DNA of 39,492 bases from a virus: the IMG/VR virus record IMGVR_UViG_3300030419_005136, positions 1 through 39,492 of that record; one strand, written 5' to 3'. A program made the translations under genes and the position numbers. Below, in pieces: positions 12,858-27,171 of the stretch. Below the pieces are notes generated by a model that made no database searches, had not been told where the DNA came from, and saw nothing but the letters and a program-made list of their open reading frames with translations. Every line of letters starts with the position of its first letter. Position 1 is the first letter of the stretch.

Positions 12858-14126
12858 TTACCCCGCCACCCCTTGCCACCACTGGGGCTGGTCGCTGTTG
12901 TGATAAAACGACAATCTTGGTTCTGTCTCGGTCAGAAACACGCTAAAACCGCGCTCACATAGCCAGGTATGCCAGCGCTCCAACGCATCGAGAATCTGCC
13001 GCTCAGCGTAGGTATGAATGTAGGTACGGTCGAGCTTCGATAGCGCATGGTTCAGCAACAACTCACCGGCCAGATACTCGACCCCGAGGTCAGCCCACGT
13101 TGTACGGGCCAGCTTACGCAGGTCATGGGAATGCCACCGCGCACCGCTGGCACTCACCACCAAATCAAACACGGCTGAACGGGATAGCGGCTTTCCTTTG
13201 GATGCACCAGGGAACAGATACACGCCCCGGTAACCGTTCGCCTGCTGATAAGCGCGGTAACGGGTTAGCAGCGTCACGGCCATGGGCGTTAACGGCAGGC
13301 GGTGTTGTCGCTTTGATTTTGTGTTGTCGGTAGGGATAGTCCAGGTGCGCGCTTCCAGATCGAACTGAGGCCACTTCGCTAAACGCGTTTCCCCTATGCG
13401 GGTGCCAAACAGCAGCATCAACAACAGCAGGAAACACCCCGGCGGTTCGCACGAACGCAAGGCGCTTATCAGATCGGGCACATCGGCAGCGGTTAGCGCC
13501 CCCGCCTTAGCTGGGGTTTTCGCGTCGATGAAATCACCCACATTCACGCCTGCGAAGGGGTCAGTATCCAGCAGGTTCAGCTTACGGGCTTGCTTAAACG
13601 CGGCTTTGATCACGCCAAATATCAAACGAACGTAAGCAACGGAATAATGCTCTTGCAGCGGCCACACCAAGCCACTGTCGATACACGCCGGGGTAATGCC
13701 TGCCAACGGCTGGGCACCGAACAGGGGCAATAGGTGCCGATTAACGGCGGTTTTGATCGATGATTTTCGAGTAGCGGATAACCGGCCATGAGACGCCGAA
13801 CGGTCACGATACCAACACAGCAGGTCAGCCACGGTTTCCCACGCATCGACGCCCACCGGCCCCGCCGGATCAAGCGCCAGCTTGGCCTCCAACTCAGGCA
13901 ACCGCGCCAGCAGGGCGCGGGTCGTCAACTCCGGGTAATTGCCCACCCGATGCCAATGGCCACGCCCACCCGCGTAGCGCACCACGTACCAGCTGGCACG
14001 CTCACGGGAAGCATGAAAGCGCACCCGCACCGGGTAGCGCGGGTCGCGCAACTGGAAAATATCAGGGTCAGGTAGGTGCCGCTTAATCGCAGCATCAGAG
14101 AGGGGAACAGCGAGGGTTTTAGGCAT
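12858..14126 (-). CDS. int: tyrosine integrase (P4-like)
   Basis: 422 aa. The C-terminal catalytic region reads ...RIGETRLAKW...HSHDLRKLARTTWADLGV...LLNHALSKLDRTYIHT (R, H-x-x-R, H, Y). Confidence 0.85.
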   Translation of the reverse strand: MPKTLAVPLSDAAIKRHLPDPDIFQLRDPRYPVRVRFHASRERASWYVVRYAGGRGHWHRVGNYPELTTRALLARLPELEAKLALDPAGPVGVDAWETVADLLCWYRDRSASHGRLSATRKSSIKTAVNRHLLPLFGAQPLAGITPACIDSGLVWPLQEHYSVAYVRLIFGVIKAAFKQARKLNLLDTDPFAGVNVGDFIDAKTPAKAGALTAADVPDLISALRSCEPPGCFLLLLMLLFGTRIGETRLAKWPQFDLEARTWTIPTDNTKSKRQHRLPLTPMAVTLLTRYRAYQQANGYRGVYLFPGASKGKPLSRSAVFDLVVSASGARWHSHDLRKLARTTWADLGVEYLAGELLLNHALSKLDRTYIHTYAERQILDALERWHTWLCERGFSVFLTETEPRLSFYHNSDQPQWWQGVAG

Positions 14127-14871: not shown

Positions 14872-14901
14872 GCGTTATAGCGTGCTAGCGTTATTTCACG
14901 C
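14872..14901 (-). repeat. dispersed 30-bp GCGT/ACGC-box repeat, copy downstream of Q
   Basis: gcgttatagcgtgctagcgttatttcacgc. Its reverse complement matches the copies at 19628 and 20988 at nearly every position. Confidence 0.7.
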
Positions 14902-15048
14902 TTACCACTCGATGCGCCCCAAAGCGGGCGATAACGCTTGTTCTTGCTGCCTTCTTGGTAGTGCTGGCAGGCACCACCATAGAAAACGTCTTAGGCTTCC
15001 TGCCTTCCAAAACGGTCACGCGGAATACACGGTTAACCGCTTTGGAAG

Positions 15049-16442: not shown

Positions 16443-16999
16443 TCGACGGCCTCTCTGAGTCGTTGGGCGCGATGCGCCTGCAAAATGTCGTGCAACACGG
16501 TCACCTTGGCCGCATCGCCCTGACGCAACGCCGCCTCGACTGCCGCGCTCATATCCCCCACGGTCACACGGGAAACGCACCAGCGGGCGAAATAGCGCAG
16601 GTTATCGGGGTGGTTCGCCACGTGGGGCGGGTAAGCCAGATCATTGATAAACCACGCCGCCCACTGCTCGGCGCGGTGATAAAGGGTGTCATCGGTGGGT
16701 GCCTGGGCAGGGTCTGCGCGTTCAAGCGTCGGGCAATGCACCGTGAGTGATTCGCCATCATCCTCGACGATCAACAGCCCCTGCGCTTGGTAAAACGCCA
16801 TAAACTCACGGGCGCTATCGTCGTCGGCCTGCATCAAATCGCCCCACGCCACATAGGTTTTTTGTACCGGCCCGGTAGCGGCGGCTAGGGTTTCCAGCAC
16901 CAGCAAATAGCGGGCATAGCCAATCAACCCATACTCAGCCGCCACGGTGGCCACGCCCTCGCTGTGCGCAAGCCCGGCGGGGTGAACAAACCCACTCAC
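16433..16999 (-). CDS. hypothetical early protein (possibly replisome-organiser N-terminal-like)
   Basis: GTGA overlap with the Cro-like gene. The segment VAAEYGLIGYARYLLVLETLA recalls DUF4373-type domains. This assignment is weak. Confidence 0.35.
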   Translation of the reverse strand: MSGFVHPAGLAHSEGVATVAAEYGLIGYARYLLVLETLAAATGPVQKTYVAWGDLMQADDDSAREFMAFYQAQGLLIVEDDGESLTVHCPTLERADPAQAPTDDTLYHRAEQWAAWFINDLAYPPHVANHPDNLRYFARWCVSRVTVGDMSAAVEAALRQGDAAKVTVLHDILQAHRAQRLREAVECY

Positions 17000-17280
17000 G
17001 CCGCCACCCCGTCGCGCTCAGCCAGCACCGCCGCCCAAGGGCCATAGATGCCGTTATAATCCACCGCGCCAGCGGTCAACCGCACGATGCGCCCAGCGGT
17101 GCGTAAACTCGGGGCACGATCAAAGCGATACCAGCTCATCACCGTACGGGGCTTCTCGCTGAGCAGCGCGCCCGCACAGTCCGGCCCGCCCACTTGATCA
17201 ATCCAATCATTCAGCAACACTTTAGCGCACCATTTAACACGAATTGTGTTAAGCCTAGCGCGAAGATTGCCCACGTACAA
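16996..17280 (-). CDS. Cro/YdaS-like HTH regulator, first gene of the leftward operon
   Basis: It is divergent from the CI-like gene. The HTH-like segment is GGPDCAGALLSEKPRTVMSWYRFDRAPSLRTAGRIVRLTAGAV. The start codon is uncertain (TTG 17280 or an internal GTG). Confidence 0.5.
   Translation of the reverse strand: MYVGNLRARLNTIRVKWCAKVLLNDWIDQVGGPDCAGALLSEKPRTVMSWYRFDRAPSLRTAGRIVRLTAGAVDYNGIYGPWAAVLAERDGVAA
17234..17252. promoter_or_regulatory. operator-like perfect palindrome TTAACAC-gaatt-GTGTTAA
   Basis: 7-bp perfect arms with a 5-bp spacer, at the 5' edge of the Cro-like ORF facing the CI gene. Confidence 0.6.
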
Positions 17281-17298
17281 AGGTTTTTTTATTCCACA

Positions 17299-17317
17299 CT
17301 TACACGCTTTGTGTATT
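17299..17317. promoter_or_regulatory. operator-like palindrome cTTACAC-gcttt-GTGTAtt in the cI/cro divergent region
   Basis: It has the same ACAC-N5-GTGT core, in the 131-bp intergenic region between the divergent regulators. Confidence 0.55.
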
Positions 17318-17411
17318 ACTATTGCCTAAGAGGTAATATTTACCCGAAAATTAATCACCGAAGGCGCACACGGACGGCATCAACGGCGGGATAGATAACG
17401 GGAAGCGGAAA

Positions 17412-18065
17412 ATGTCACAGCAAAGCGACAGACAGGACAAAAAAGAGCTAATCGCACAGCGACTAGTGGAAGTGCGCACCCACTTAGGGTGGTCGATCCG
17501 CGACGCAGTCGAAGCGCTCGGCTACGTGCGCTCTCGTTATACCAACTGGGAGCTAGGCATTCGCATGCCCGGCTATCAAGAATTGGAAGACATCGGCAAC
17601 GTAACTGGCTGCAACCCCGGCTATTTTGTCGGCTGGACAAACCGCATGATCGACAGCAGCTACGTCGTGCTAGACCGCACCACGGTTAAAACCCGTGGCG
17701 GCTCGATCACCGTGCAAAACGCCACCGATGTAGCCGCCTACCGCGACGACTACCTAGCCGAAAAAGGGCTAAAGCCCAGCAGTATTATCACCGTCAAAGC
17801 CGAAGATGACGCCATGGAAGGGGTTATCAGCAAGGGCGATTTAGCGCTAATCGACATGAGCCGCAAGCCCGATGCCGTGCGCGACCTGTTCGCCATCCTC
17901 GTGGGTGATCGTATCTGGCTGCGCTGGATACGCCCGGAAATCAACGGCAGCTACACCATGAGCGCCGAAAACAGCCACCAATACCCGGATGAAACCCTCA
18001 CCACCGAGCAGCTACAACAGCTCAACATCATCGGACGCGTCGCCATCATCGAGCACGAACGCTAA
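17412..18065 (+). CDS. CI-like repressor: XRE HTH + S24 peptidase-like domain lacking the catalytic Ser and Lys
   Basis: The N-terminal HTH is LIAQRLVEVRTHLGWSIRDAVEALGYVRSRYTNWELG. The C-terminal LexA/CI-like fold has DDAM in place of GDSM/GNSM and WLRWI in place of VKRL/FKKL. Confidence 0.75.
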   Translation: MSQQSDRQDKKELIAQRLVEVRTHLGWSIRDAVEALGYVRSRYTNWELGIRMPGYQELEDIGNVTGCNPGYFVGWTNRMIDSSYVVLDRTTVKTRGGSITVQNATDVAAYRDDYLAEKGLKPSSIITVKAEDDAMEGVISKGDLALIDMSRKPDAVRDLFAILVGDRIWLRWIRPEINGSYTMSAENSHQYPDETLTTEQLQQLNIIGRVAIIEHER

Positions 18066-18098
18066 CCCCCGCCCAGCGGAAAAACACCCCACTCCTAG

Positions 18099-18126
18099 AA
18101 CGGCACCTACAAAGTGCCGTTTTTTG
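18099..18126 (+). terminator. intrinsic terminator after the CI-like gene
   Basis: AACGGCAC-ctacaaa-GTGCCGTT followed by a T-run. Confidence 0.75.
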
Positions 18127-18135
18127 GCTTGCCGA

Positions 18136-18174
18136 ATAACACAATTAGTGTCACTCTTACACAGACTGTGTAAT
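18136..18174. promoter_or_regulatory. two adjacent operator-like palindromes (aTAACAC-aatta-GTGTCac; cTTACAC-agact-GTGTAAt) ahead of the rightward operon
   Basis: They have the same ACAC-N5-GTGT core as the sites at 17234 and 17299. They lie between the cI terminator and the gene at 18191 and overlap the -10-like TGTAAT. Confidence 0.55.
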
Positions 18175-18190
18175 CAAGAGGGTTTCACTA

Positions 18191-18448
18191 ATGACCACGC
18201 AAGCGCTAGCCACCGTTGCCGCATCGCCCCCCATCGCCTGCACGCCACAAGCGCTGCACCAAGCACTGCGCGAAAGCGTGGCTATCGCCTGCGGCCTCGA
18301 AAAAATGGCCCAATGCGCGCTAGATGAAGGCGAGTACCCAGCGGAAGAACTCGACAACCTTTTTGCTCTCATTAACCGCCACCGCCGCGATTTAGAAGAG
18401 ATCAAGGCCGCGCTGGCCGAACTCGCCACGGGTGGCCGCCATGAATAA
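18191..18448 (+). CDS. hypothetical early protein
   Basis: ATG with an AGAGGG SD. 85 aa, acidic, no recognised motif. Confidence 0.5.
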   Translation: MTTQALATVAASPPIACTPQALHQALRESVAIACGLEKMAQCALDEGEYPAEELDNLFALINRHRRDLEEIKAALAELATGGRHE

Positions 18449-18842
18449 CGCCCTCACATGGCGCGACAACGACGCCCTCGCCCAGCCCGGCCAAGCCCTC
18501 AGCGACCAAGAGCTAGCCCACCTGCTCGCCCTCGCCAACGGCAACGCCCCTAGCGCCATTGCCGCCATGAACGGCACCAGCCGCGCCCAACAGCAGCAAC
18601 TAGAAAGCAGCCTGCGGGCCAAGCTGGGCGCGTTCAGCAAAGCGCACCTCATTACCCGCGCGTTCGTGCTGGGCGTGCTGCTACCTCGCTGCCTCACCGT
18701 GCTACTGATCGTCGCCACACTCGGTAATGGCGCCCAACAAGATGCCATCGCCCAGCGCCTACCCCGCCGCCCCACGCAAACCGCCAGCGCCCGCCTAATG
18801 CGTACTCAGCGGGGCAGTAGCGCAGGGGGTCGCCGCACATGA
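18441..18842 (+). CDS. LuxR/GerE-type HTH protein with hydrophobic C-terminal segment
   Basis: LSDQELAHLLALANGNAPSAIAAMNGTSRAQQQQLESSLRAKLGAFSKAHLITRAFVLGVL resembles the LuxR C-terminal HTH. The start could instead be GTG 18432. Confidence 0.45.
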   Translation: MNNALTWRDNDALAQPGQALSDQELAHLLALANGNAPSAIAAMNGTSRAQQQQLESSLRAKLGAFSKAHLITRAFVLGVLLPRCLTVLLIVATLGNGAQQDAIAQRLPRRPTQTASARLMRTQRGSSAGGRRT

Positions 18843-19141
18843 AACCGCACACCCTCACAGGTCCACGGCGTCGGCACTGCCGCTGTCGCGTCTGTCACGG
18901 GCGGCAGGTCAAGGCCAAACACCCGGACGACTACACCCGCCGCATTCGCTGCAAACACTGCGGGCGGTTCGACACCCTGGCGGTCGACAAATGGGCCGAT
19001 AACCGGGGCTGGCGTAAATACACGTGCTATTGCGATGGCTACCACTTCCCGCACCGCATCCGCTCAGAATTCTGTTTTGAAAACCCACACTACGGCGACC
19101 ACGAAGAACGCCGGTTAACCGCTTACGGGGTGATGGCATGA
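18839..19141 (+). CDS. Cys/His-rich zinc-binding hypothetical protein
   Basis: ATGA overlap with the upstream gene. Multiple CxxC/CxC pairs (CRCRVCHG, CKHCG, CYCDGYHFPHR). Confidence 0.5.
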   Translation: MKPHTLTGPRRRHCRCRVCHGRQVKAKHPDDYTRRIRCKHCGRFDTLAVDKWADNRGWRKYTCYCDGYHFPHRIRSEFCFENPHYGDHEERRLTAYGVMA

Positions 19142-19653
19142 AAATTATGGCGACCGACCTACCACTAAGCCACTGGCAGCGCATTGCCGAACAAAACGGC
19201 ATTCAGCGCAGAACGTTTCTCTATCGCCTGAAAACCATGGACGCGAAAAAAGCCGCCACCAAGCCGCTCAAAAAAGGTGGCATAAAGCCCAGCGCCCAAA
19301 GCAAGCGCCAAAAAAGCCTAGCCGCCGGGCTAGATGAATGCGCCCTAAGCCGCTACCGCCGCGAACACCCCGAAAGCCAGCTAAGCGACGAAGCCGCCCT
19401 AGCCTTTCTGCAAGCGCGCAAAGCCAAACTGCAAAACACCCTACGCGAACGCGCCCTTGCAGCAGGGCTAAGCCCCCAGCTGGTGTATCACCGCATTAGC
19501 CGCAACTGGCCGCTAGATAAAGCACTCAACACCCCGCCCATGCCCACCAGCCACGCGGCCCGCATCGGCGGCAAAGCCCGCGCCCAGCAAAAGCGCGAAC
19601 GCCGCCAGAAGCGGCTTCAGCAAGCAGCGTTAAAAAACGCTAGCACGCAATAA
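19138..19653 (+). CDS. basic hypothetical protein with two HTH-like repeats
   Basis: ATGA overlap with the upstream gene. The stop codon lies inside the 30-bp repeat at 19628-19657. Confidence 0.5.
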   Translation: MKIMATDLPLSHWQRIAEQNGIQRRTFLYRLKTMDAKKAATKPLKKGGIKPSAQSKRQKSLAAGLDECALSRYRREHPESQLSDEAALAFLQARKAKLQNTLRERALAAGLSPQLVYHRISRNWPLDKALNTPPMPTSHAARIGGKARAQQKRERRQKRLQQAALKNASTQ

Positions 19654-19657
19654 CGCA
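19628..19657 (+). repeat. dispersed 30-bp GCGT/ACGC-box repeat
   Basis: gcgttaaaaaacgctagcacgcaataacgc differs from the copy at 20988 at one position. Confidence 0.75.
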
Positions 19658-19684
19658 AACAAAACCGACACAGGAAGCCCCGCC

Positions 19685-20854
19685 ATGTGGTTTACCAACA
19701 TCACCGTTTACCAGCTCCACAACGCCCAAGCGATCGACAGCATAACGCTGCATGAAACGCTGCAAGCAGAAGCCGCCAAGCCGTTAGGCAATACCGACGC
19801 CAAGCGCCTTGGCTGGACACCCCCAGCAGGTCGCGCCAGCAACGCCTATTTACATGAAAGCCAAGGCCACCGCCTGCTCAGCATGCTCAAACAGCAACGC
19901 ATGCTGCCGCCCAAGGTCGTCAAAGCAGCGGTCGAGGAAAAGGTCGCGGAAGTCGAAGCCAACGAAGGCCGCAAGGTCACGCGCAAAGAAAAAACCGCCT
20001 TCAAAGAACAGATCACCGAGGAGCTGCTACCCCGCGCCTTTATCGATAGCGTCAAAATCGACGCATGGTGGGACGTAGAAAAAAACCGCATCATCATCAA
20101 CAGCGGCAGCCGCGCCCGCTGCGAAGAGCTGTTAGACCTGCTACGCGAAACCCTCGGCAGCCTCAAAGCCACCCCGCTCAGCACCCAAACGCTACCCATC
20201 CGCGCCATGACCACCTGGGTAGGCGACGCCAGTCACCGCCCCGCCAACCTCCAGCTCGGCGACAAAGCCACGCTCAAAGCCAAAGGCGACGACGGTAAAA
20301 TAGCCGCCACGCAAGTGGATCTCGACAGCGACGAAATACAGCAGCTACTCGAAAGCGGGCGCCAAGCCACCAACCTCGCCATTACCATCGACGAACGCGT
20401 GAGCGGCGTACTCACCGACAGCCTGCAGCTAAAAGGGCTGCGCTTTAGCGACAAGCTCATAGAGCAAGCCGACATGACCGAAACAAAGAGCGACGACGGC
20501 GACGACGCCATCGCCCGGCTGGAAAGCGACTTTTTCCTCATGGCCCACGCCCTAAGCGACACGCTGGATAGCCTCGTTCACATGCTGGGCGGTGAAACCG
20601 TACGTGAAGTAGCAGCAGAAAAAGGCACACGCCCCGACGACAGCCACCCCGGCGAACAGATCGGCGGCTTTGAAAAAGAAGAGCCGTTATTGAAAGAGGC
20701 CATCGAGCTAGTGAAGCGCTCCCCGCGTGACAAGCTCACGGTTTCCAAGCTCCAGCGTCATTTCAAAATTGGTTACAACCGCGCCGCATGGATGCAAGCC
20801 TACCTGATCCAAAACGGCCACATCCCCGACCACTACGCGCAGCTAACCCCATGA
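19685..20854 (+). CDS. rdgC: RdgC-like recombination-associated protein fused to an FtsK-gamma-like winged helix
   Basis: The N-terminus MWFTNITVYQL matches E. coli RdgC MLWFKNLMVYRL, with colinear RdgC blocks for about 300 aa. The C-terminus DKLTVSKLQRHFKIGYNRAAWMQAYLIQNGHI matches FtsK gamma [28 protein letters not shown]. Confidence 0.75.
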   Translation: MWFTNITVYQLHNAQAIDSITLHETLQAEAAKPLGNTDAKRLGWTPPAGRASNAYLHESQGHRLLSMLKQQRMLPPKVVKAAVEEKVAEVEANEGRKVTRKEKTAFKEQITEELLPRAFIDSVKIDAWWDVEKNRIIINSGSRARCEELLDLLRETLGSLKATPLSTQTLPIRAMTTWVGDASHRPANLQLGDKATLKAKGDDGKIAATQVDLDSDEIQQLLESGRQATNLAITIDERVSGVLTDSLQLKGLRFSDKLIEQADMTETKSDDGDDAIARLESDFFLMAHALSDTLDSLVHMLGGETVREVAAEKGTRPDDSHPGEQIGGFEKEEPLLKEAIELVKRSPRDKLTVSKLQRHFKIGYNRAAWMQAYLIQNGHIPDHYAQLTP

Positions 20855-21003
20855 ACACCGCCACCCTCTACCGCTGCTACAACCCCAAATGCAACCAGGG
20901 CAACACCCCCGGCTGGATGCTAGGCGCTAACCCCATTTGCCCCAAGTGCGGCCACTGGCTCACGCGCCAGCCCAACGATAACGCCAGCGTTAAAAAACGC
21001 TAG
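20851..21003 (+). CDS. 50-aa zinc-ribbon protein
   Basis: ATGA overlap with rdgC. Two CxxC pairs (CYNPKC ... CPKC). The stop codon (TAG) lies inside the 30-bp repeat. Confidence 0.45.
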   Translation: MNTATLYRCYNPKCNQGNTPGWMLGANPICPKCGHWLTRQPNDNASVKKR

Positions 21004-21017
21004 CACGCTATAACGCA
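20988..21017 (+). repeat. dispersed 30-bp GCGT/ACGC-box repeat
   Basis: gcgttaaaaaacgctagcacgctataacgc. Confidence 0.75.
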
Positions 21018-21036
21018 ACCAACAGGAACCGATGCC

Positions 21037-21168
21037 ATGCCCACCCCGCTAATGCTACTGATCGGGCTAGCCGCTGCCGCCGTCGCCTACGCCGGGTGGC
21101 AGTGCAAGCGCGAAATGGAACAGCTCGACCACAACGGCGACCCCATCGAGAAGGACGAACAGCCATGA
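21037..21168 (+). CDS. 43-aa single-TM peptide
   Basis: Below the ORF-track cutoff. The product is MPTPLMLLIGLAAAAVAYAGWQCKREMEQLDHNGDPIEKDEQP. Its stop overlaps the next ATG (ATGA). Confidence 0.35.
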   Translation: MPTPLMLLIGLAAAAVAYAGWQCKREMEQLDHNGDPIEKDEQP

Positions 21169-21410
21169 TCATCGACCACCGCGCCAAAAACGCCCAGCGC
21201 ATTCCCTGCAAAGAGTTTCGCGGTGAATGCCGCATGTGCCAAAGCGGGTTTATTGCCCGCAGCGGGGTATGCTCGGGCGTCAACCCTGACAGCGCCAGCG
21301 CGCCCGACTGCCTGCGGGACGAAGTGCCAGAACACCTATGCCAGCCCAACGGCCTGCCGCTAGGATGGGGTAAATTCACGCAGGATAGCGCCAGCGAGGC
21401 CCGACAATGA
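21165..21410 (+). CDS. 81-aa Cys-rich hypothetical protein
   Basis: ATGA coupling on both sides. The product begins MIIDHRAKNAQRIPCKEFRGECRMCQSG... Confidence 0.45.
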   Translation: MIIDHRAKNAQRIPCKEFRGECRMCQSGFIARSGVCSGVNPDSASAPDCLRDEVPEHLCQPNGLPLGWGKFTQDSASEARQ

Positions 21411-21991
21411 GAAATTCACCTATTTCAAAGCTGAAAGACCACCAGAGGCCAGCAGACAGCACAGCTCTAAGGGTTGGTTTTTTCAAAGGTGAAAACTTTG
21501 AAGTTGAGTTCACTCACTCTCGGCCCAAGAGACGGATAACGCTAGAAAACCCGCCGCCAAAGCCAAAGATGCCTGCAACCGCCAAAGACTACGCAGGAAT
21601 GCGCAACGGCAGAATGACCGCGTTTTTCTGGTTTAGAGAGTCACCCAGCAAAACCAGCTCAATATGGGTGGTGAAGTGCGACTGCGGCAGATATGAATTC
21701 AGAAAAAAAATAGGACGCTGGATAAAAGGTTATAAAGACGGCAACGACATGTGCGAGATATGCGAGAGAGAAAGAGAAATGCTCACCGGGCGCACATCAA
21801 AAGAAAACGAAGGAAAAAGGCGACTGCGTTTCATTGAAAAAATGCGTACCAAGGGTCTTCAAGACAATGATATAGAAAGGCTAATGCGCTTGGGAGTAGG
21901 TCTTGAAACGGCTAAAACCAAAAGCGAAATTCTAGACGCCATCGACGCTAAAGAAGCTAGCTTGAAAGAATACCAGGAGCGCCAGCATTGA
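21407..21991 (+). CDS. low-G+C hypothetical protein with CDCG...CEIC zinc motif
   Basis: 194 aa. The block YAGMRNGRMTAFFWFRE...IWVVKCDCGRYEFRKK...DMCEICERE resembles a widespread phage GRLTV...W.C.CDCG motif family. G+C is much lower than in the neighbours. Confidence 0.55.
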   Translation: MRNSPISKLKDHQRPADSTALRVGFFKGENFEVEFTHSRPKRRITLENPPPKPKMPATAKDYAGMRNGRMTAFFWFRESPSKTSSIWVVKCDCGRYEFRKKIGRWIKGYKDGNDMCEICEREREMLTGRTSKENEGKRRLRFIEKMRTKGLQDNDIERLMRLGVGLETAKTKSEILDAIDAKEASLKEYQERQH

Positions 21992-22257
21992 CCACAAAAC
22001 TGCATAGCGCTACTCTGCCCGAAGTCGCTGCAAAATCAGCGACCGGGTTTAGCAGCTCAACGGACATTGGCGCACAAGCGCCCCCAATCATCGTGTAGGC
22101 GCTATTTTTGTGCCCGCGTGATGCACTATGGCGGGCCGTGCGTGGGGCGCTTCGGCGCGCCGGGTTTCCAATGTCCCCGGTCTGCTAACCCGCGTACGGT
22201 TCGCCTCCATCGTTTAGCAGCGACAGGCGAACTCCAACAGACTTGGAGAATCGCACC

Positions 22258-23040
22258 ATGAGCACCCCCACTATCACAGTGTCTGGCGTCACCCTTCCCT
22301 ATATTGAATATCAGCAGCAACCCGTCGTCACTTTCGCCATGATCGACGGCGTACATTCAAAATCCAAGGCGACGGCACGACGCTCATTTCAGCGAAACAA
22401 AAAGCATTTTATTGAGGGTGAAGACTTCTATGCCCTTGATTCTGAAAGGTTGGGACAAATTGTCACTACCTATCCCGACCTGTTTCCGGCGGCAACCACA
22501 CGCCTAACCCTCTTCACCGAAACCGGCTACCTTATGCTGGTCAAATCGTTTACCGACGACCTCGCATGGCAAGTACAGCGCCAGCTCGTCAAAAGCTATT
22601 TCCGCGTCAAAGGCGCGATGCAGCCCACCACCGCCGAGCCCATCCCCACGCCCATCGACCACCGCCAGCGCGAACAGCTCACCAACGCGGCTAACGCCGT
22701 GTTTCGCAATTTCCACGGCATGCGCCAAAGCGCCACCGGCTGGTTTTACAACGGCGTGCGCACCGACTACTGCCTAAAACGCATCGAAGATTTAAGCCAG
22801 GACGACTTCCCGGCGGTGATGGAACGCCTCCAAGCCCTACGCCCCAAGGTGCGCCAATACGAAGATTTTAGGTATGACTTTCAACAGTCGTTTTTAAAAG
22901 AGGTGGTAGGCGAAGGCCAGCCCTACACGGCATGGATCAGCAAGCTAGCCGGTGGCCAACACCACATCGGCCAACGCCCCAACTGGAAAGCGATAGCCAA
23001 GCAAGTGCTAATCCACAACGGCTTACTCACCAAACAGTAA
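22258..23040 (+). CDS. ORF6N/KilA-N domain protein (antirepressor-type DNA-binding protein)
   Basis: ATG 22258 with a GGAGA SD. The N-terminus QPVVTFAMIDGVHSKSKATARRSFQRNKKHFIEGEDFY...LFTETGYLMLVKSFTDDLAWQVQRQLVKSYF fits ORF6N. Confidence 0.6.
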   Translation: MSTPTITVSGVTLPYIEYQQQPVVTFAMIDGVHSKSKATARRSFQRNKKHFIEGEDFYALDSERLGQIVTTYPDLFPAATTRLTLFTETGYLMLVKSFTDDLAWQVQRQLVKSYFRVKGAMQPTTAEPIPTPIDHRQREQLTNAANAVFRNFHGMRQSATGWFYNGVRTDYCLKRIEDLSQDDFPAVMERLQALRPKVRQYEDFRYDFQQSFLKEVVGEGQPYTAWISKLAGGQHHIGQRPNWKAIAKQVLIHNGLLTKQ

Positions 23041-23063
23041 GCCCACCCGCGCCAGCCCACCCA

Positions 23064-23088
23064 AGCCCGCCACCGCGCGGGCTTTTTG
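23064..23088 (+). terminator. intrinsic terminator after the ORF6N gene
   Basis: AGCCCGC-caccgc-GCGGGCT followed by TTTTG. Confidence 0.7.
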
Positions 23089-23102
23089 CTGCCTGAACGC
23101 CT

Positions 23103-23225
23103 GCGTTATAAAACGCTAGCGTTTTAGCGTTTTATCTTGCACCCCTAGCAGCGCTTTTCTATACTAGCGTTATTGCGTGCTAGCGTTATTTAACGCTGTA
23201 ACGCCAGTGCGCAAAAACGCAACGT
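23103..23225. promoter_or_regulatory. array of GCGT/ACGC tetramer boxes (candidate partition site and par operator)
   Basis: The core reads GCGT-tatt-GCGT-gcta-GCGT-tattta-ACGC-tgta-ACGC-cagt-GCGC-aaaa-ACGC (23167-23220). Three more boxes lie at 23103-23130. The array ends 20 bp before parA. Confidence 0.55.
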
Positions 23226-23244
23226 TAGCCAAGGGGAAACACCA

Positions 23245-23895
23245 ATGGGATACAAAATTGCCTTCGTGAGCCAAAAGGGCGGCGTCAGCAAAAGCACCCT
23301 AAGTCGAGCACTCGGCACCACCTATGCGGCGGCGGGCTGGAACGTCAAAATCGCCGACCTCGATATTAACCAGTCCACCTCGTTTACATGGCTGCAGCGC
23401 CGCCTCAAAAGCGGCGTAACGCCCGAGGTGGCGGTGGAAACCTTCGGCACGGTGGCCAGCGCCCTCAAAGTAGCTGACACCTACGACCTAATGATTTTCG
23501 ACGGTGCGCCCCACGCCACCAAAGCCACCGCCGAAGTGGCCCGGCTTGCGGATCTCGTCGTTCTGCCTACCGCGTTAAGCGTTGACGACCTTGAACCCAC
23601 CGTAAGGCTGGCCAACACACTCACCGGCCAAGAGGGCGTACCCATTGAGCGCATCGCCATCGCGCTGAGCAAAGTAGGCAAGAGCAAAACGCAGCTGCAG
23701 GATGCCCGCGCCTACCTCGCCCATACGCCCTATTTTGTACTCGATGGCCAAGTACCCGAGCGCGACGCGTTTGTATTAGCCCAAGATAAAGGGCTGTCGA
23801 TTGTTGAAACCCCCTTCAAAGGCCCGAAGGCCCAAGCGGATGAACTGATACAAAACATCATCAACCGCTTTGAATCACTCGTTCAGTCAGCGTGA
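23245..23895 (+). CDS. parA: ParA/ParF-type partition ATPase (small, type Ib)
   Basis: Deviant Walker A KGGVSKST in MGYKIAFVSQKGGVSKSTLSRALG. 216 aa, with no N-terminal HTH domain. Confidence 0.8.
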   Translation: MGYKIAFVSQKGGVSKSTLSRALGTTYAAAGWNVKIADLDINQSTSFTWLQRRLKSGVTPEVAVETFGTVASALKVADTYDLMIFDGAPHATKATAEVARLADLVVLPTALSVDDLEPTVRLANTLTGQEGVPIERIAIALSKVGKSKTQLQDARAYLAHTPYFVLDGQVPERDAFVLAQDKGLSIVETPFKGPKAQADELIQNIINRFESLVQSA

Positions 23896-23919
23896 AATAA
23901 CGCTAGAACGCTAACACGC
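23890..23919 (+). repeat. degenerate copy of the 30-bp GCGT/ACGC-box repeat between parA and parG
   Basis: gcgtgaaataacgctagaacgctaacacgc. Confidence 0.55.
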
Positions 23920-23932
23920 AGGAGTAAGCAGC

Positions 23933-24175
23933 ATGGCGAAACCGTCACTTAAACCCAGCAGCAAAGGCGCACCACCCACGGCAGCTACCCCCGGCCCGGT
24001 AGTGGGCAACAACACCAGCAAACCGGAAAGCGGCGAAAAGGTGCCGCTGAATTTCCGCGTTGATCCTGAAATGCGCCGGGAGTTTAAAGCGTTTGCCGTA
24101 GAGCATGACATGCAAATGGTGGACGTACTCAAGGAAGCCTGGGCAGCGTATAAGCGGGAAAAAGGGAAGGGCTAA
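23933..24175 (+). CDS. parG: ribbon-helix-helix ParG-like centromere-binding protein
   Basis: 80 aa with an AGGAG SD. It has a flexible basic N-terminus, then VPLNFRVDPEMRREFKAFAVEHDMQMVDVLKEAW (an RHH beta-strand plus helices). Confidence 0.6.
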   Translation: MAKPSLKPSSKGAPPTAATPGPVVGNNTSKPESGEKVPLNFRVDPEMRREFKAFAVEHDMQMVDVLKEAWAAYKREKGKG

Positions 24176-24178
24176 ACC

Positions 24179-24535
24179 ATGGCGATCAACGAAACTGCCG
24201 AGCTTGAACGGCTGATACCCAGCTATGAGCTGGCACTATGCACTATCGCTGGGCGGCTGAATGACAACAACAAATACGCCATGGAAGCGGTGCTGATCGG
24301 CTCGCACCCAAGCGGGAAGGGCGTAACCGCTGCCATCCGTTGCGATGCACGCTGGGGAACGGCCTACGCACTGCAGGAAGCACCCTACAGCACCTATCAA
24401 GACGCGCTAAGCGCTTTTGGCGTCATGCTAGACGACATTACCGCCCGCAACGAAGGCCGCGCAAAATGGAAGGATGAAGCGTGGTGGGAACAGCACCACG
24501 ACGACTTGAAAGCCCGCTATGGCTTTGAGCTATAG
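24179..24535 (+). CDS. hypothetical protein
   Basis: 118 aa, starting 3 nt after the parG stop. No recognised motif. Confidence 0.45.
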   Translation: MAINETAELERLIPSYELALCTIAGRLNDNNKYAMEAVLIGSHPSGKGVTAAIRCDARWGTAYALQEAPYSTYQDALSAFGVMLDDITARNEGRAKWKDEAWWEQHHDDLKARYGFEL

Positions 24536-26523: not shown

Positions 26524-27171
26524 ATGTACGTCAGGGGATACCTACGCGCCAGCACGGCAGAGCAGAACGCCCAGCGGGCACGCAGCACGCTAGAACACTT
26601 CGCCGCTGAACATCGCCGTGAGGTAGTGAGCTGGTATATCGAGAATGTGAGCGGCGCTAGCAGCCAGCGCCCGGAACTCAGGAGGCTTCTGGAAGACGCC
26701 AAGCAAGGTGATGTGCTACTGATCGAATCGGTAGACCGCCTTTCCCGCCTGGGGGCGGCAGAGTGGCGGCACCTGCGGGGGCAGATTGAGGCGCTAGGGT
26801 TACGGGTGGTGTCGCTGGACCTTCCCACTAGCTACGCAGCCATGGCCACGCCCAGCCAGGGCGAGGATTTTACCGCCCGCATGCTCGATGCGCTGAATAC
26901 CATGATGCTAGACGTACTCGCAGCGGTAGCCCGCAAAGACTACGACGACCGGCGAACGCGCCAGCGCCAGGGGATAGAGCAAGCAAAGAAGGAAGGCAAG
27001 TACCAGGGAAAGCGGCCCAACAAGGCACTACACCAGCGAATTGAAGCGCTATTGAACGCCCGCGATGGTGAAGGCAAACCGTTCACCACGGCGCGCATTT
27101 GCGAGCTAGCCGGGTGCGGTGAAACCACTGTGAAAAAGGTAAAGCGGGCTATGCGCGAAAAGGCACACTAA
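26524..27171 (+). CDS. serine recombinase (resolvase/invertase family)
   Basis: The catalytic N-terminus is MYVRGYLRASTAEQN. The block VLLIESVDRLSRL and a C-terminal HTH (ARICELAGCGETTVKKV) are present. Confidence 0.8.
   Translation: MYVRGYLRASTAEQNAQRARSTLEHFAAEHRREVVSWYIENVSGASSQRPELRRLLEDAKQGDVLLIESVDRLSRLGAAEWRHLRGQIEALGLRVVSLDLPTSYAAMATPSQGEDFTARMLDALNTMMLDVLAAVARKDYDDRRTRQRQGIEQAKKEGKYQGKRPNKALHQRIEALLNARDGEGKPFTTARICELAGCGETTVKKVKRAMREKAH

Follow-up and report, generated by a model that had tools for sequence, protein, structure and literature searches.

A phage RdgC carrying an FtsK-gamma-type helix-turn-helix module at its C-terminus

The window analyzed in this study, a stretch of 39,492 nucleotides of viral DNA, contains a gene in which a complete RdgC is fused to the three-helix core of an FtsK-gamma-type helix-turn-helix domain. 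RdgC is a well-described and functionally puzzling RecA antagonist, and the gamma domain of FtsK is known from textbooks for reading chromosome polarity and triggering XerCD. The fused gene, rdgC-gamma (positions 19685..20854, plus strand), is a single ORF of 389 aa, identified by its stop-free translation, its Pfam domains, and the same layout in relatives. The architecture proposed in the initial annotation is correct, as seen from the Pfam domain calls for both families (RdgC, PF04381, and FtsK_gamma, PF09397). We tentatively suggest, with a probability of about 0.45, that the protein is an early phage RdgC clamp that would moderate RecA, and that its gamma part may serve as a second DNA-targeting module, tethered and changed in specificity.

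The RdgC half and the genomic setting

The RdgC domain occupies residues 1-304 (19685..20596, plus strand) and covers the entire PF04381 profile (positions 1-298 of 298; E 3.7e-85, 286.3 bits at a Pfam cut-off of 25). The solved ring-forming RdgC structures match at E ~1e-52 in round figures (2OWY, 7.6e-52, and 2OWL, 1.9e-51, over residues 1-306). The colinearity of the first 300 or so residues with E. coli RdgC, noticed in the initial annotation, is thereby confirmed, as are the motifs quoted there, LLPRAF and LRETLGSLKATPL versus LRKSLGSLPVVPL in E. coli. The RdgC half shows 63-65% identity to the chromosomal proteins of Halomonas and other Halomonadaceae.

In E. coli RdgC, the gate residue F120 and the horseshoe residues Q212, E218, and K227 are essential for the dimer interfaces and function, and the electropositive fingertip R97, K98, K100, and K101 is needed for loading on circular DNA (PMC2965237). 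In the alignment with E. coli RdgC, the four essential residues correspond to F119, Q210, E217, and R226, the last being a K to R substitution, and the gate residue R117 is kept as well. The basic fingertip is also retained as R96, K97, and R100, with K101 and K103 adjoining, and only the equivalent of K100 differs (T99).

A ribosome-binding site, AGGAAG (19672..19677, plus strand), is read directly from the sequence 7 nt 5' of the ATG. Just 5' of the gene lies a 30-bp ACGC/GCGT-box element (19626..19657; repeat families D2 and I3-I5), which contains the stop codon of the preceding ORF and is a candidate operator or partition-protein site. The same element forms a mosaic exchange boundary: compared with the related locus L100, identity is 91-95% here and 57% inside the gene. 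Repeat analysis, the sequence itself, and the comparison with L100 revealed a second 30-bp copy at 20986..21017. It contains the stop codon of a 50-aa zinc-ribbon ORF with a CxxC...CxxC pattern (20851..21003, plus strand), which is translationally coupled to rdgC-gamma via an ATGA overlap. This small ORF is kept 3' of rdgC-gamma in the relatives L100-L103 and is uncalled in L104. According to the comparison with L100, it has been exchanged together with the gamma module.

The rdgC-gamma gene belongs to a rightward operon behind a repressor with HTH and S24-peptidase domains. A promoter and terminator scan of positions 16800-24200 gave fewer matches than shuffled sequence. The neighbors at 18432-19653 and 21096-21991 belong to no named Pfam or PHROG family, except for weak sigma-like and HNH-like PHROG matches. 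The phage genome also encodes its own tyrosine integrase and a serine recombinase of the invertase/resolvase type. The source is best read as a temperate, RecA-inducible Halomonas-type siphophage or phage-plasmid, with rdgC-gamma as an early gene.

A role in the choice between lysis and lysogeny or in the exclusion of superinfecting phages, exerted by the RdgC ring, its tail, and the zinc-ribbon partner on something other than RecA, should be weighed at this point. Lambda RexA has the same fold as RdgC and biases the switch between lysis and lysogeny (PMC11077077), and a role of this kind has been proposed for lambdoid rdgC genes adjoining cI (PMC12315714). The rdgC-gamma gene itself lies downstream of a cI-like gene in the same orientation, with no convincing terminator separating them. 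However, its identity to the Halomonas proteins and its retained essential residues mark the window protein as a bona fide RdgC and not a divergent RexA-like form; no RexB-like partner was seen, and in other phages the gene sits in modules with SSB and exonuclease genes. We consider this role very unlikely.

The C-terminal module

The 85-aa C-terminal extension starts with a flexible linker of about 26 aa (residues 305-330; 20597..20674, plus strand), recognized from the AlphaFold2 confidence and from alignment A1, where it shows the conserved motif GTRPDDSHPGEQIGGF. In the structure, predicted for the monomer with AlphaFold2, residues 305-332 have pLDDT below 50, that is, the linker is disordered. 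It is followed by the FtsK-gamma-type three-helix core (residues 331-380; 20675..20824, plus strand), supported by Pfam, phmmer, and Foldseek. The helices span approximately residues 336-345, 353-360, and 364-376, are modeled confidently (pLDDT 73-87), and leave residues 381-389 as a short tail at the position of the wing.

The PF09397 score of the core is 36.3 bits against the curated cut-off of 30.6, and 39.4 bits in a six-frame search of the genome. The phmmer matches to the gamma structures 2J5P, 2VE8, and 5DCF have E-values of about 1e-4, and the identity of the core to FtsK gamma domains of any source is about 30%. When the predicted core was compared with the PDB by Foldseek, the 13 best matches were all FtsK gamma domains (2VE8, 2VE9, 5DCF, 2J5P), superimposed at rmsd 1.1-1.7 Å over 45-52 aligned columns with probability 0.99-1.00; the E-values are merely 0.02-0.1 because the domain is small. 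Thus the fold assignment of the initial annotation stands, and the signature motif QRHFKIGYNRAA is indeed present. One detail needs adjusting: the Pfam match is confined to profile positions 2-49 of 63, leaving positions 50-63 unmatched, so that just the three-helix core is present. The beta-hairpin wing is missing: its strands appear in neither model, and the tail GHIPDHYAQLTP takes the place of G..S.M...G.REVL.

The alpha and beta motor domains of FtsK (PF17854, PF01580) are absent both from the protein and from the whole 39.5-kb genome, where the gamma match is the only one. The "DNA translocase" label carried by the Achromobacter homolog is a misnomer.

The truncated form of the domain could be taken for the decaying remains of a formerly canonical gamma, functionless in this phage. 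Its Pfam score is low compared with the 72-87 bits of other phages, the wing and two reading residues are lost, and in the sister proteins P0014 and P0018 the domain scores below the FtsK_gamma cut-off of Pfam. Against decay, the same tail protein sequence is found joined to an RdgC part with only about 66% identity to that of the window: over the 63 tail codons there are five nucleotide differences, all of them synonymous. The tail is under purifying selection. Moreover, the three-helix core is modeled with confidence and the wing-less form is kept throughout a 14-member clade, which makes loss of function highly improbable.

Candidate targets of the module

In FtsK, mutations of N1296, R1300, and E1303 make the protein KOPS-blind (PMC2533119). 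Alignments with FtsK gamma place N365, W369, and A372 at these positions in the window protein, so that only the asparagine of the triad is kept, and W369 and A372 (20789..20800, plus strand) stand in the recognition helix in place of the KOPS-reading R1300 and E1303. Further, one KOPS is read by three gamma domains and monomers bind weakly (PMC3384302), whereas an RdgC ring carries two. The suggestion of the initial annotation that the module reads KOPS-type motifs is therefore unsupported for this copy, with one triad residue of three, a truncated wing, and two gammas per ring.

If the tail nevertheless read canonical KOPS (GGGNAGGG), it could load the RdgC ring at polar motifs or compete with FtsK. 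The motif occurs eight times on the plus strand and once on the minus strand of the genome, where about 2.3-2.6 per strand are expected, but this skew ranks only 117th among 3162 comparable motifs. Polar counts were found in other carriers of the fusion (1:10 in PA8, 2:10 in F1Pa, and 13:0 in CF418P1). An equally strong polarity, however, was observed in phage H66 (10:0), whose RdgC is gamma-less, and the motif is absent or rare in the fusion-carrying Vibrio phages (0:0, 0:0, and 2:2); therefore, KOPS polarity does not discriminate and was rejected as evidence of targeting. We regard KOPS reading by the window protein as quite unlikely. For the canonical relatives, such as Pseudomonas phage PA8, the retained N/R/E triad and wing suggest that it may still take place.

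The module could instead be directed at a protein. Residues Q1288-R1297 of FtsK contact both XerD and DNA, the XerD contacts of E. coli gamma being Q1288, R1289, R1292, I1293, G1294, and N1296, and the 9-mer RQFRIGYNR by itself stimulates XerCD (PMC5052618). In the alignment and the contact table, this stretch corresponds to QRHFKIGYNR (residues 357-366; 20753..20782, plus strand), where Q357, R358, K361, I362, G363, and N365 match the contacts in five of six cases at the sequence level, with one R to K replacement. Judging from these residues, the protein might be an FtsK mimic, whose tail would present a XerD-activating surface, so that a ring-held protein could switch on or sequester the host XerCD independently of FtsK. 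Possible uses would be the resolution of multimers of a plasmid-like prophage or interference with the dimer resolution of the host chromosome.

The stretch is invariant or nearly so in all fused proteins and forms their common core, whereas drift is seen in the wing and at the positions specific for KOPS. A canonical dif site, an FtsK gamma, and a XerD bearing the GEEA patch are all present in the likely host genus; relatives of the phage carry ParA and a ParG-like protein, and one of them is recorded as a 45.8-kb plasmid. Phage-encoded Xer activators, XafT and XafV, are also known (10.64898/2026.06.12.731946). On the other hand, the conserved residues double as turn and DNA-contact residues of the helix-turn-helix fold, so that their conservation does not point specifically to XerD; QR.F.IGYNR is a DNA-contact and a XerD-activating surface alike, and therefore the sequence cannot separate DNA binding from XerD binding. 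A scan of the phage genome with the E. coli dif and the Halomonas dif (found in three genomes) revealed no dif-like site beyond the range of shuffled sequences: the best match agrees at 16 of 22 arm positions, as against 14-17 for shuffled sequences. This best match, at about 17232, is an inverted repeat in the upstream region of the cI-like gene, and is more likely an operator than a dif site. The phage, in addition, owns two recombinases, the integrase and the serine enzyme mentioned above, and in H66 a nucleoid-binding protein, not a Xer factor, is encoded where the gamma tail would be. Mimicry of FtsK towards XerD thus appears unlikely; if the tail did engage XerD, it would represent a new class of phage Xer modulators.

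Distribution, proposed role, and comparison with known systems

The RdgC and gamma architecture was found in roughly 100-200 phage records, including Vibrio phages, Pseudomonas Hollowayvirus, Achromobacter phages, and Halomonas phages and phage-plasmids. At least 28 protein clusters (377-392 aa) share the two-domain single-ORF layout, which, along with the single ORF in the window, excludes a frameshift or a two-gene artefact, the possibility that the initial annotation had itself raised. Of the phage RdgC genes in the phage collection, a large share, perhaps about half, have the gamma tail. In the openly searchable literature we found no paper describing an RdgC-FtsK gamma fusion or pairing both names, and the six papers that mention RdgC together with FtsK name neither in the title or abstract. 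The architecture is uncharacterized, as the initial annotation had supposed, but being common in phages it is not the singularity implied there.

On the RdgC tree, the fusion state shows no fewer than four changes. For the fused forms of the Halomonas type, the AU test disfavors a single origin (p 0.022). Both halves tend to resemble the rdgC and ftsK of the local host. For instance, the RdgC half of PA8 scores 521 bits with the P. aeruginosa RdgC, its gamma half is 68% identical to the P. aeruginosa FtsK gamma, and the gamma of P0029 is 60-65% identical to the Halomonas FtsK gamma. Within Hollowayvirus, PA8 and F1Pa carry the fused protein, and H66, with a nearly identical RdgC part, encodes a 306-aa RdgC followed in the same slot by a separate NA37 nucleoid-associated protein. 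The tail can thus be acquired, lost, or exchanged within very short times. The large share among phage RdgC genes, the fast turnover, and the host-like halves argue for strong and repeated selection for some function, as do the state changes and the AU test.

These observations raise the possibility that phages of different hosts have independently built the chimera from the host rdgC and the host ftsK gamma, with a ring that would plug into the KOPS and/or XerD system. The wing-less W369/A372 allele of the window, cassette-exchanged with its zinc-ribbon partner, would then represent a re-targeted form that has acquired a new specificity, for DNA or for a protein. Such a scenario is doubtful; if true, it would reveal a previously unrecognized way in which phages interact with the segregation machinery of the host.

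Returning to the RdgC clamp with a second DNA-targeting module, we suggest the following. A dimeric RdgC ring would encircle duplex DNA and limit RecA there, both in strand exchange and in its co-protease activity towards LexA/CI-type repressors. Each protomer would bear the FtsK-gamma-derived helix-turn-helix on its tether of about 26 residues, as a second, independent domain for DNA targeting or loading. In the canonical relatives this module is host-FtsK-like and probably prefers KOPS-type motifs. The window copy has W369 and A372 in the reading helix and lacks the wing, so its specificity is probably changed or relaxed. The module seems to be inherited as a cassette with the small zinc-ribbon protein. 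That NA37 takes the place of gamma in H66 is consistent with a DNA-targeting tail, as a purely positional argument. DNA binding by this gamma allele, a target motif, if it has one, and an action of the protein against RecA during the phage life cycle are inferred. On the opposite side, a wing-less gamma might bind DNA poorly, and, by analogy with the fold relative RexA, which biases the lysis-lysogeny switch (PMC11077077, PMC12315714), it may be that the phage RdgC has no action on RecA. If the tail does target DNA, the protein would be the first example of an RdgC to which a DNA-targeting domain has been added on a tether. Taken alone, the window gives a more modest result, a derived allele of rdgC-gamma. 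Since PA8 and F1Pa, with the canonical tail, grow on PAO1, and the gamma-less relative H66 was isolated on strain HIM-6, the question is directly testable.

Among known systems, the chromosomal RdgC proteins (2OWL of E. coli, 2OWY of P. aeruginosa, and the 308-317 aa proteins of Halomonas/Vreelandella) are colinear with the window protein over the full length of residues 1-304 and have in common with it the gate (R, F), the horseshoe (Q, E, K/R), and the basic fingertip. Unlike them, the window protein is phage-borne, has the C-terminal extension of linker and gamma core, and is translationally coupled to a zinc-ribbon ORF. With the FtsK gamma subdomain (2J5P, 2VE8/2VE9, 5DCF) it shares the three-helix core and the motif QR.F.IGYNRA, but it has two extra residues in the loop that joins helices 1 and 2, a short tail instead of the beta-wing, and W and A for R1300 and E1303. 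There are two gammas per RdgC dimer versus six per FtsK hexamer and, in contrast to FtsK/SpoIIIE, no translocase motor in the phage protein.

The RdgC-gamma proteins of other phages (PA8, F1Pa, Achromobacter CF418P1, Vibrio K120, ST2-1pr, and SHOU24) have the same architecture (386-408 aa) and, like the window gene, an early or recombination-module context, although their RdgC parts are only about 30-37% identical to that of the window. Their gamma is canonical and host-FtsK-like, with 72-87 bits, the full wing, and the N/R/E triad, whereas the tail of the window is a derived wing-less allele. Lambda RexA resembles the window protein in having an RdgC-like fold, being phage-encoded, binding DNA non-specifically, and adjoining the repressor gene, but it has neither detectable RdgC sequence similarity nor a gamma module, while the sequence of the window protein is that of a true RdgC. 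Finally, XafT and XafV of the Vibrio IMEX phages are phage-encoded substitutes for FtsK gamma that activate XerCD, a functional analogy relevant to XerD mimicry only. They have unrelated helix-turn-helix folds and are encoded beside a dif-like attP, in contrast to the window, which has no dif-like site.

Domain architecture and the RdgC half

The rdgC-gamma gene (window 19685-20854, + strand) is an uninterrupted frame of 389 aa, with the ribosome-binding site AGGAAG 7 nt upstream. In Pfam, its product matches the RdgC profile end to end (PF04381, residues 1-304, E 3.7e-85) and the FtsK_gamma profile (PF09397) on residues 331-380, with 36.3 bits against a curated cut-off of 30.6; a six-frame search of the genome scores the gamma part, the only one present, at 39.4 bits. 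The N-terminal part matches two solved RdgC structures with E of about 1e-52, and the C-terminal 90 residues match FtsK-gamma chains only (2J5P, 2VE8/9, and 5DCF; E about 1e-4). In AlphaFold2 models, residues 305-332 form a disordered linker, and the tail behind it folds into three helices without any strand. The 13 best PDB matches of the tail model in Foldseek are all FtsK gamma domains (rmsd 1.1-1.7 Å, 45-52 aligned columns), with modest E-values, as expected for so small a domain. The fusion proposed in the initial annotation is confirmed. At least 28 protein clusters (377-392 aa) share the layout, which, together with the intact frame, excludes two genes separated by a frameshift. Linker residues 305-330 (window 20597-20674) carry a motif, GTRPDDSHPGEQ(I/V)GGF, that is conserved across the clade of the window protein and partly in P0041, and that may be a short protein-binding motif.

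The RdgC part was aligned to E. coli RdgC and checked against the mutants that Briggs et al. studied (PMC2965237), and no degeneration was seen in this alignment. The gate residues R118 and F120 of the E. coli protein correspond to R117 and F119, and the essential horseshoe residues Q212, E218, and K227 to Q210, E217, and R226; the basic fingertip, which in E. coli loads the ring on circular DNA, is represented by R96, K97, R100, and K101. E. coli RdgC is established as encircling duplex DNA and excluding RecA (Drees et al. 2006, as cited; Briggs et al. 2010, PMC2965237), and on this basis the phage ring would do the same. The chromosomal RdgC proteins of Halomonas and Vreelandella are 63-65% identical to the RdgC part, which suggests this genus group as the likely host.

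The gamma tail, KOPS, and XerD

FtsK becomes blind to KOPS, the polar motif read by its gamma domain, when N1296, R1300, and E1303 are mutated (PMC2533119). In the alignment these positions are occupied by N365, W369, and A372, so that one of the three is kept. The FtsK_gamma match ends at profile position 49 of 63, and a GHIPDHYAQLTP tail stands where canonical gammas have the wing hairpin (G.REVL). Unlike FtsK gamma, the domain has two extra residues between its first and second helices, and it is about 30% identical overall to any FtsK gamma. Reading one KOPS takes three gamma domains, each a weak binder in isolation (PMC3384302), whereas an RdgC dimer would carry only two. Of the proposed KOPS-reading tail, the gamma-type fold is supported, but KOPS reading is not supported for this copy.

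The canonical KOPS (GGGNAGGG) is skewed 8:1 in the window, with the + strand count about three times that expected. The fused phages PA8 (1:10), F1Pa (2:10), and CF418P1 (13:0) also show polarity, but H66, a relative without gamma, is no less polar (10:0), and hardly any KOPS occur in the fused Vibrio phages. KOPS polarity thus goes with these high-GC temperate genomes as such and does not track the fusion; codon bias and selection in the prophage state are not separated by these counts. In the Halomonas phage QHHSV-1 (6:9), the strand preference reverses at around 20 kb. Apart from the window itself, the polar counts come from the phage records MZ285879, PP735386, OQ817832, KC262634, and KX879752. 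Given the altered triad, the missing wing, and the polarity of H66, canonical KOPS reading or competition with FtsK is distinctly unlikely, and the target of this allele is probably a different one.

The fully conserved part of the tail, QRHFKIGYNR (residues 357-366), matches the stretch that in E. coli holds all XerD-contacting residues (Q1288, R1289, R1292, I1293, G1294, and N1296), and the 9-mer RQFRIGYNR is by itself able to stimulate XerCD (PMC5052618). The tail could accordingly mimic FtsK toward XerD; however, the same surface of FtsK gamma also contacts DNA (PMC5052618), so that sequence cannot tell which activity was kept, and we regard mimicry as unlikely, if the best placed of the alternatives. 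In Halomonas genomes, dif is canonical (GGTTCGCATAATATATATTATGTTAAAT) and XerD is normal; a scan of the phage genome found no dif-like site above chance, the best look-alike, at chance level, lying at about 17232-17259. At this position the inverted repeat TTAACAC-AATTC-GTGTTAA separates a divergent 94-aa ORF from the cI-like repressor gene, and an operator is more likely than dif.

Genome setting and the exchanged cassette

The window is a complete viral record of 39,492 bp with direct terminal repeats, and the genome is that of a temperate, siphovirus-type phage. The minus strand encodes the small and large terminase, portal, a protease/major-head fusion, tape measure, endolysin, and tyrosine integrase. 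The rdgC-gamma gene lies inside a rightward block that opens with an HTH and S24-peptidase (CI/LexA-type) repressor and also contains an ORF6N antirepressor, a ParA/ParF-type ATPase with a small ribbon-helix-helix neighbour, and a serine invertase-type recombinase. Repressors of the S24-peptidase type are cleaved by RecA, and the presence of one fits a RecA-antagonist role; a RexA-like function in the switch or in exclusion is very unlikely. One genome thus combines a tyrosine integrase (12858-14126), the ParA/ParF-type ATPase with its ParG-like gene (23245-24175), and the serine invertase/resolvase-type recombinase (26524-27171), and a relative (L104) was deposited as a 45.8-kb plasmid of Halomonas qaidamensis. 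This may be a phage-plasmid or a phage with a dual lifestyle.

The window protein belongs to a clade in which all 14 members have a wing-less tail and most retain R and E of the reading helix; the W369/A372 version is common to P0001, P0003, and P0012. P0012 has an identical tail, yet its RdgC part is only about 66% identical. At the DNA level, identity between the window and the contig of P0012 (L100) is 91-95% before the ATG, varies between 57 and 88% within the RdgC part, rises to 93-100% between about 20705 and 21050, and then drops to about 45%. The exchanged cassette comprises the gamma core, a 30-bp ACGC/GCGT-box element, and a zinc-ribbon ORF (20851-21003, + strand; 50 aa with two CxxC pairs). 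This ORF and the rdgC-gamma stop codon overlap in an ATGA, and the ORF's own stop codon falls within the box element. L100-L103 keep the ORF behind the gene, also where the relative has another gamma allele, and an uncalled copy is present in the H. qaidamensis 'plasmid'; its product is a possible partner of RdgC-gamma. Two copies of the box element flank the gene (19626-19657 and 20986-21017), coinciding with the borders of the near-identical DNA shared with the diverged L100, and others lie at 14872-14902, 23167-23197, and 23888-23919. The element may be both an operator or partition-protein site and a junction of mosaic exchange. Across 63 tail codons the window and P0012 differ by five nucleotides, all synonymous, which indicates purifying selection and makes a vestigial tail the least probable of the readings considered.

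Distribution and origin of the fusion

A survey of a phage collection found RdgC homologues in 371 records and gamma domains in 377; of the gamma matches in Vibrio (177) and Pseudomonas (30), the majority fall under genes annotated as RdgC or recombination-associated exonuclease. Pfam confirmed both domains in the Pseudomonas Hollowayvirus phages PA8 and F1Pa, Achromobacter CF418P1 (where the protein is mislabelled 'DNA translocase'), and Vibrio K120, ST2-1pr, and SHOU24, with gamma scores of 64-87 bits. The wing is complete in all five aligned tails (all but SHOU24) and the N/R/E triad in four, CF418P1 having S for R; in SHOU24, Q replaces N.

A tree built from the RdgC parts without their tails shows at least four changes in the gamma state, and an AU test against a single clade of Halomonas-type fused forms gave p 0.022, for a group named after the tree was seen. 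The RdgC parts of PA8 and H66 are almost identical, and only PA8 has the tail. The shared Hollowayvirus slot runs exonuclease, SSB, RdgC, ..., LexA-like wHTH, with RdgC fused to gamma in PA8 (L003 4001-5221) and F1Pa; the same slot in H66 (L096 1501-3503) holds a 306-aa RdgC and a separate NA37 nucleoid-associated protein. Both halves look host-derived. In PA8, the RdgC part reaches 521 bits against P. aeruginosa RdgC, compared with 37% identity to that of the window, and the gamma shares 68% identity with the gamma of P. aeruginosa FtsK. P0029 has a full-wing gamma of the Halomonas type, with 60-65% identity to the FtsK gamma found in three Halomonas genomes. The simplest reading is that the same chimera was repeatedly assembled, or repeatedly homogenised, out of the rdgC and ftsK genes of the hosts; the evidence is suggestive and falls short of proof, since gamma is a short and well-conserved domain.

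Gamma domains also occur elsewhere. Five metagenomic proteins (P0122, P0123, P0154, P0169, and P0156) carry two to four in tandem, alone or fused to TIR (P0154), DUF4062 (P0169), or MORN repeats (P0156); they look defence-type, and gamma could be a DNA sensor in them. Mycobacterium phage Sejanus gp65 (L094 1670-2743; 357 aa), annotated as a sliding clamp and encoded between RecT and RusA, has a strong FtsK-gamma at residues 280-338 after 280 aa without a Pfam match, and about 100 mycobacteriophage records have gamma domains under 'FtsK-like' labels.

The fold, the NA37 replacement in H66, and the recombination-module context (SSB, exonuclease) in other phages suggest that gamma would be a DNA- or nucleoid-targeting add-on to the ring. 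We tentatively favor, with a probability of about 0.45, an early phage RdgC clamp to which a DNA-targeting module has been added on a flexible tether. RdgC and gamma are both known domains and their combination is visible in public annotations; no publication on it was found in the open-access literature. Compared with these known components, what is of interest is that the fusion recurs with host-like halves and a rapidly swapped tail and, in the window, that a re-shaped, selected gamma allele travels with a zinc-ribbon partner.
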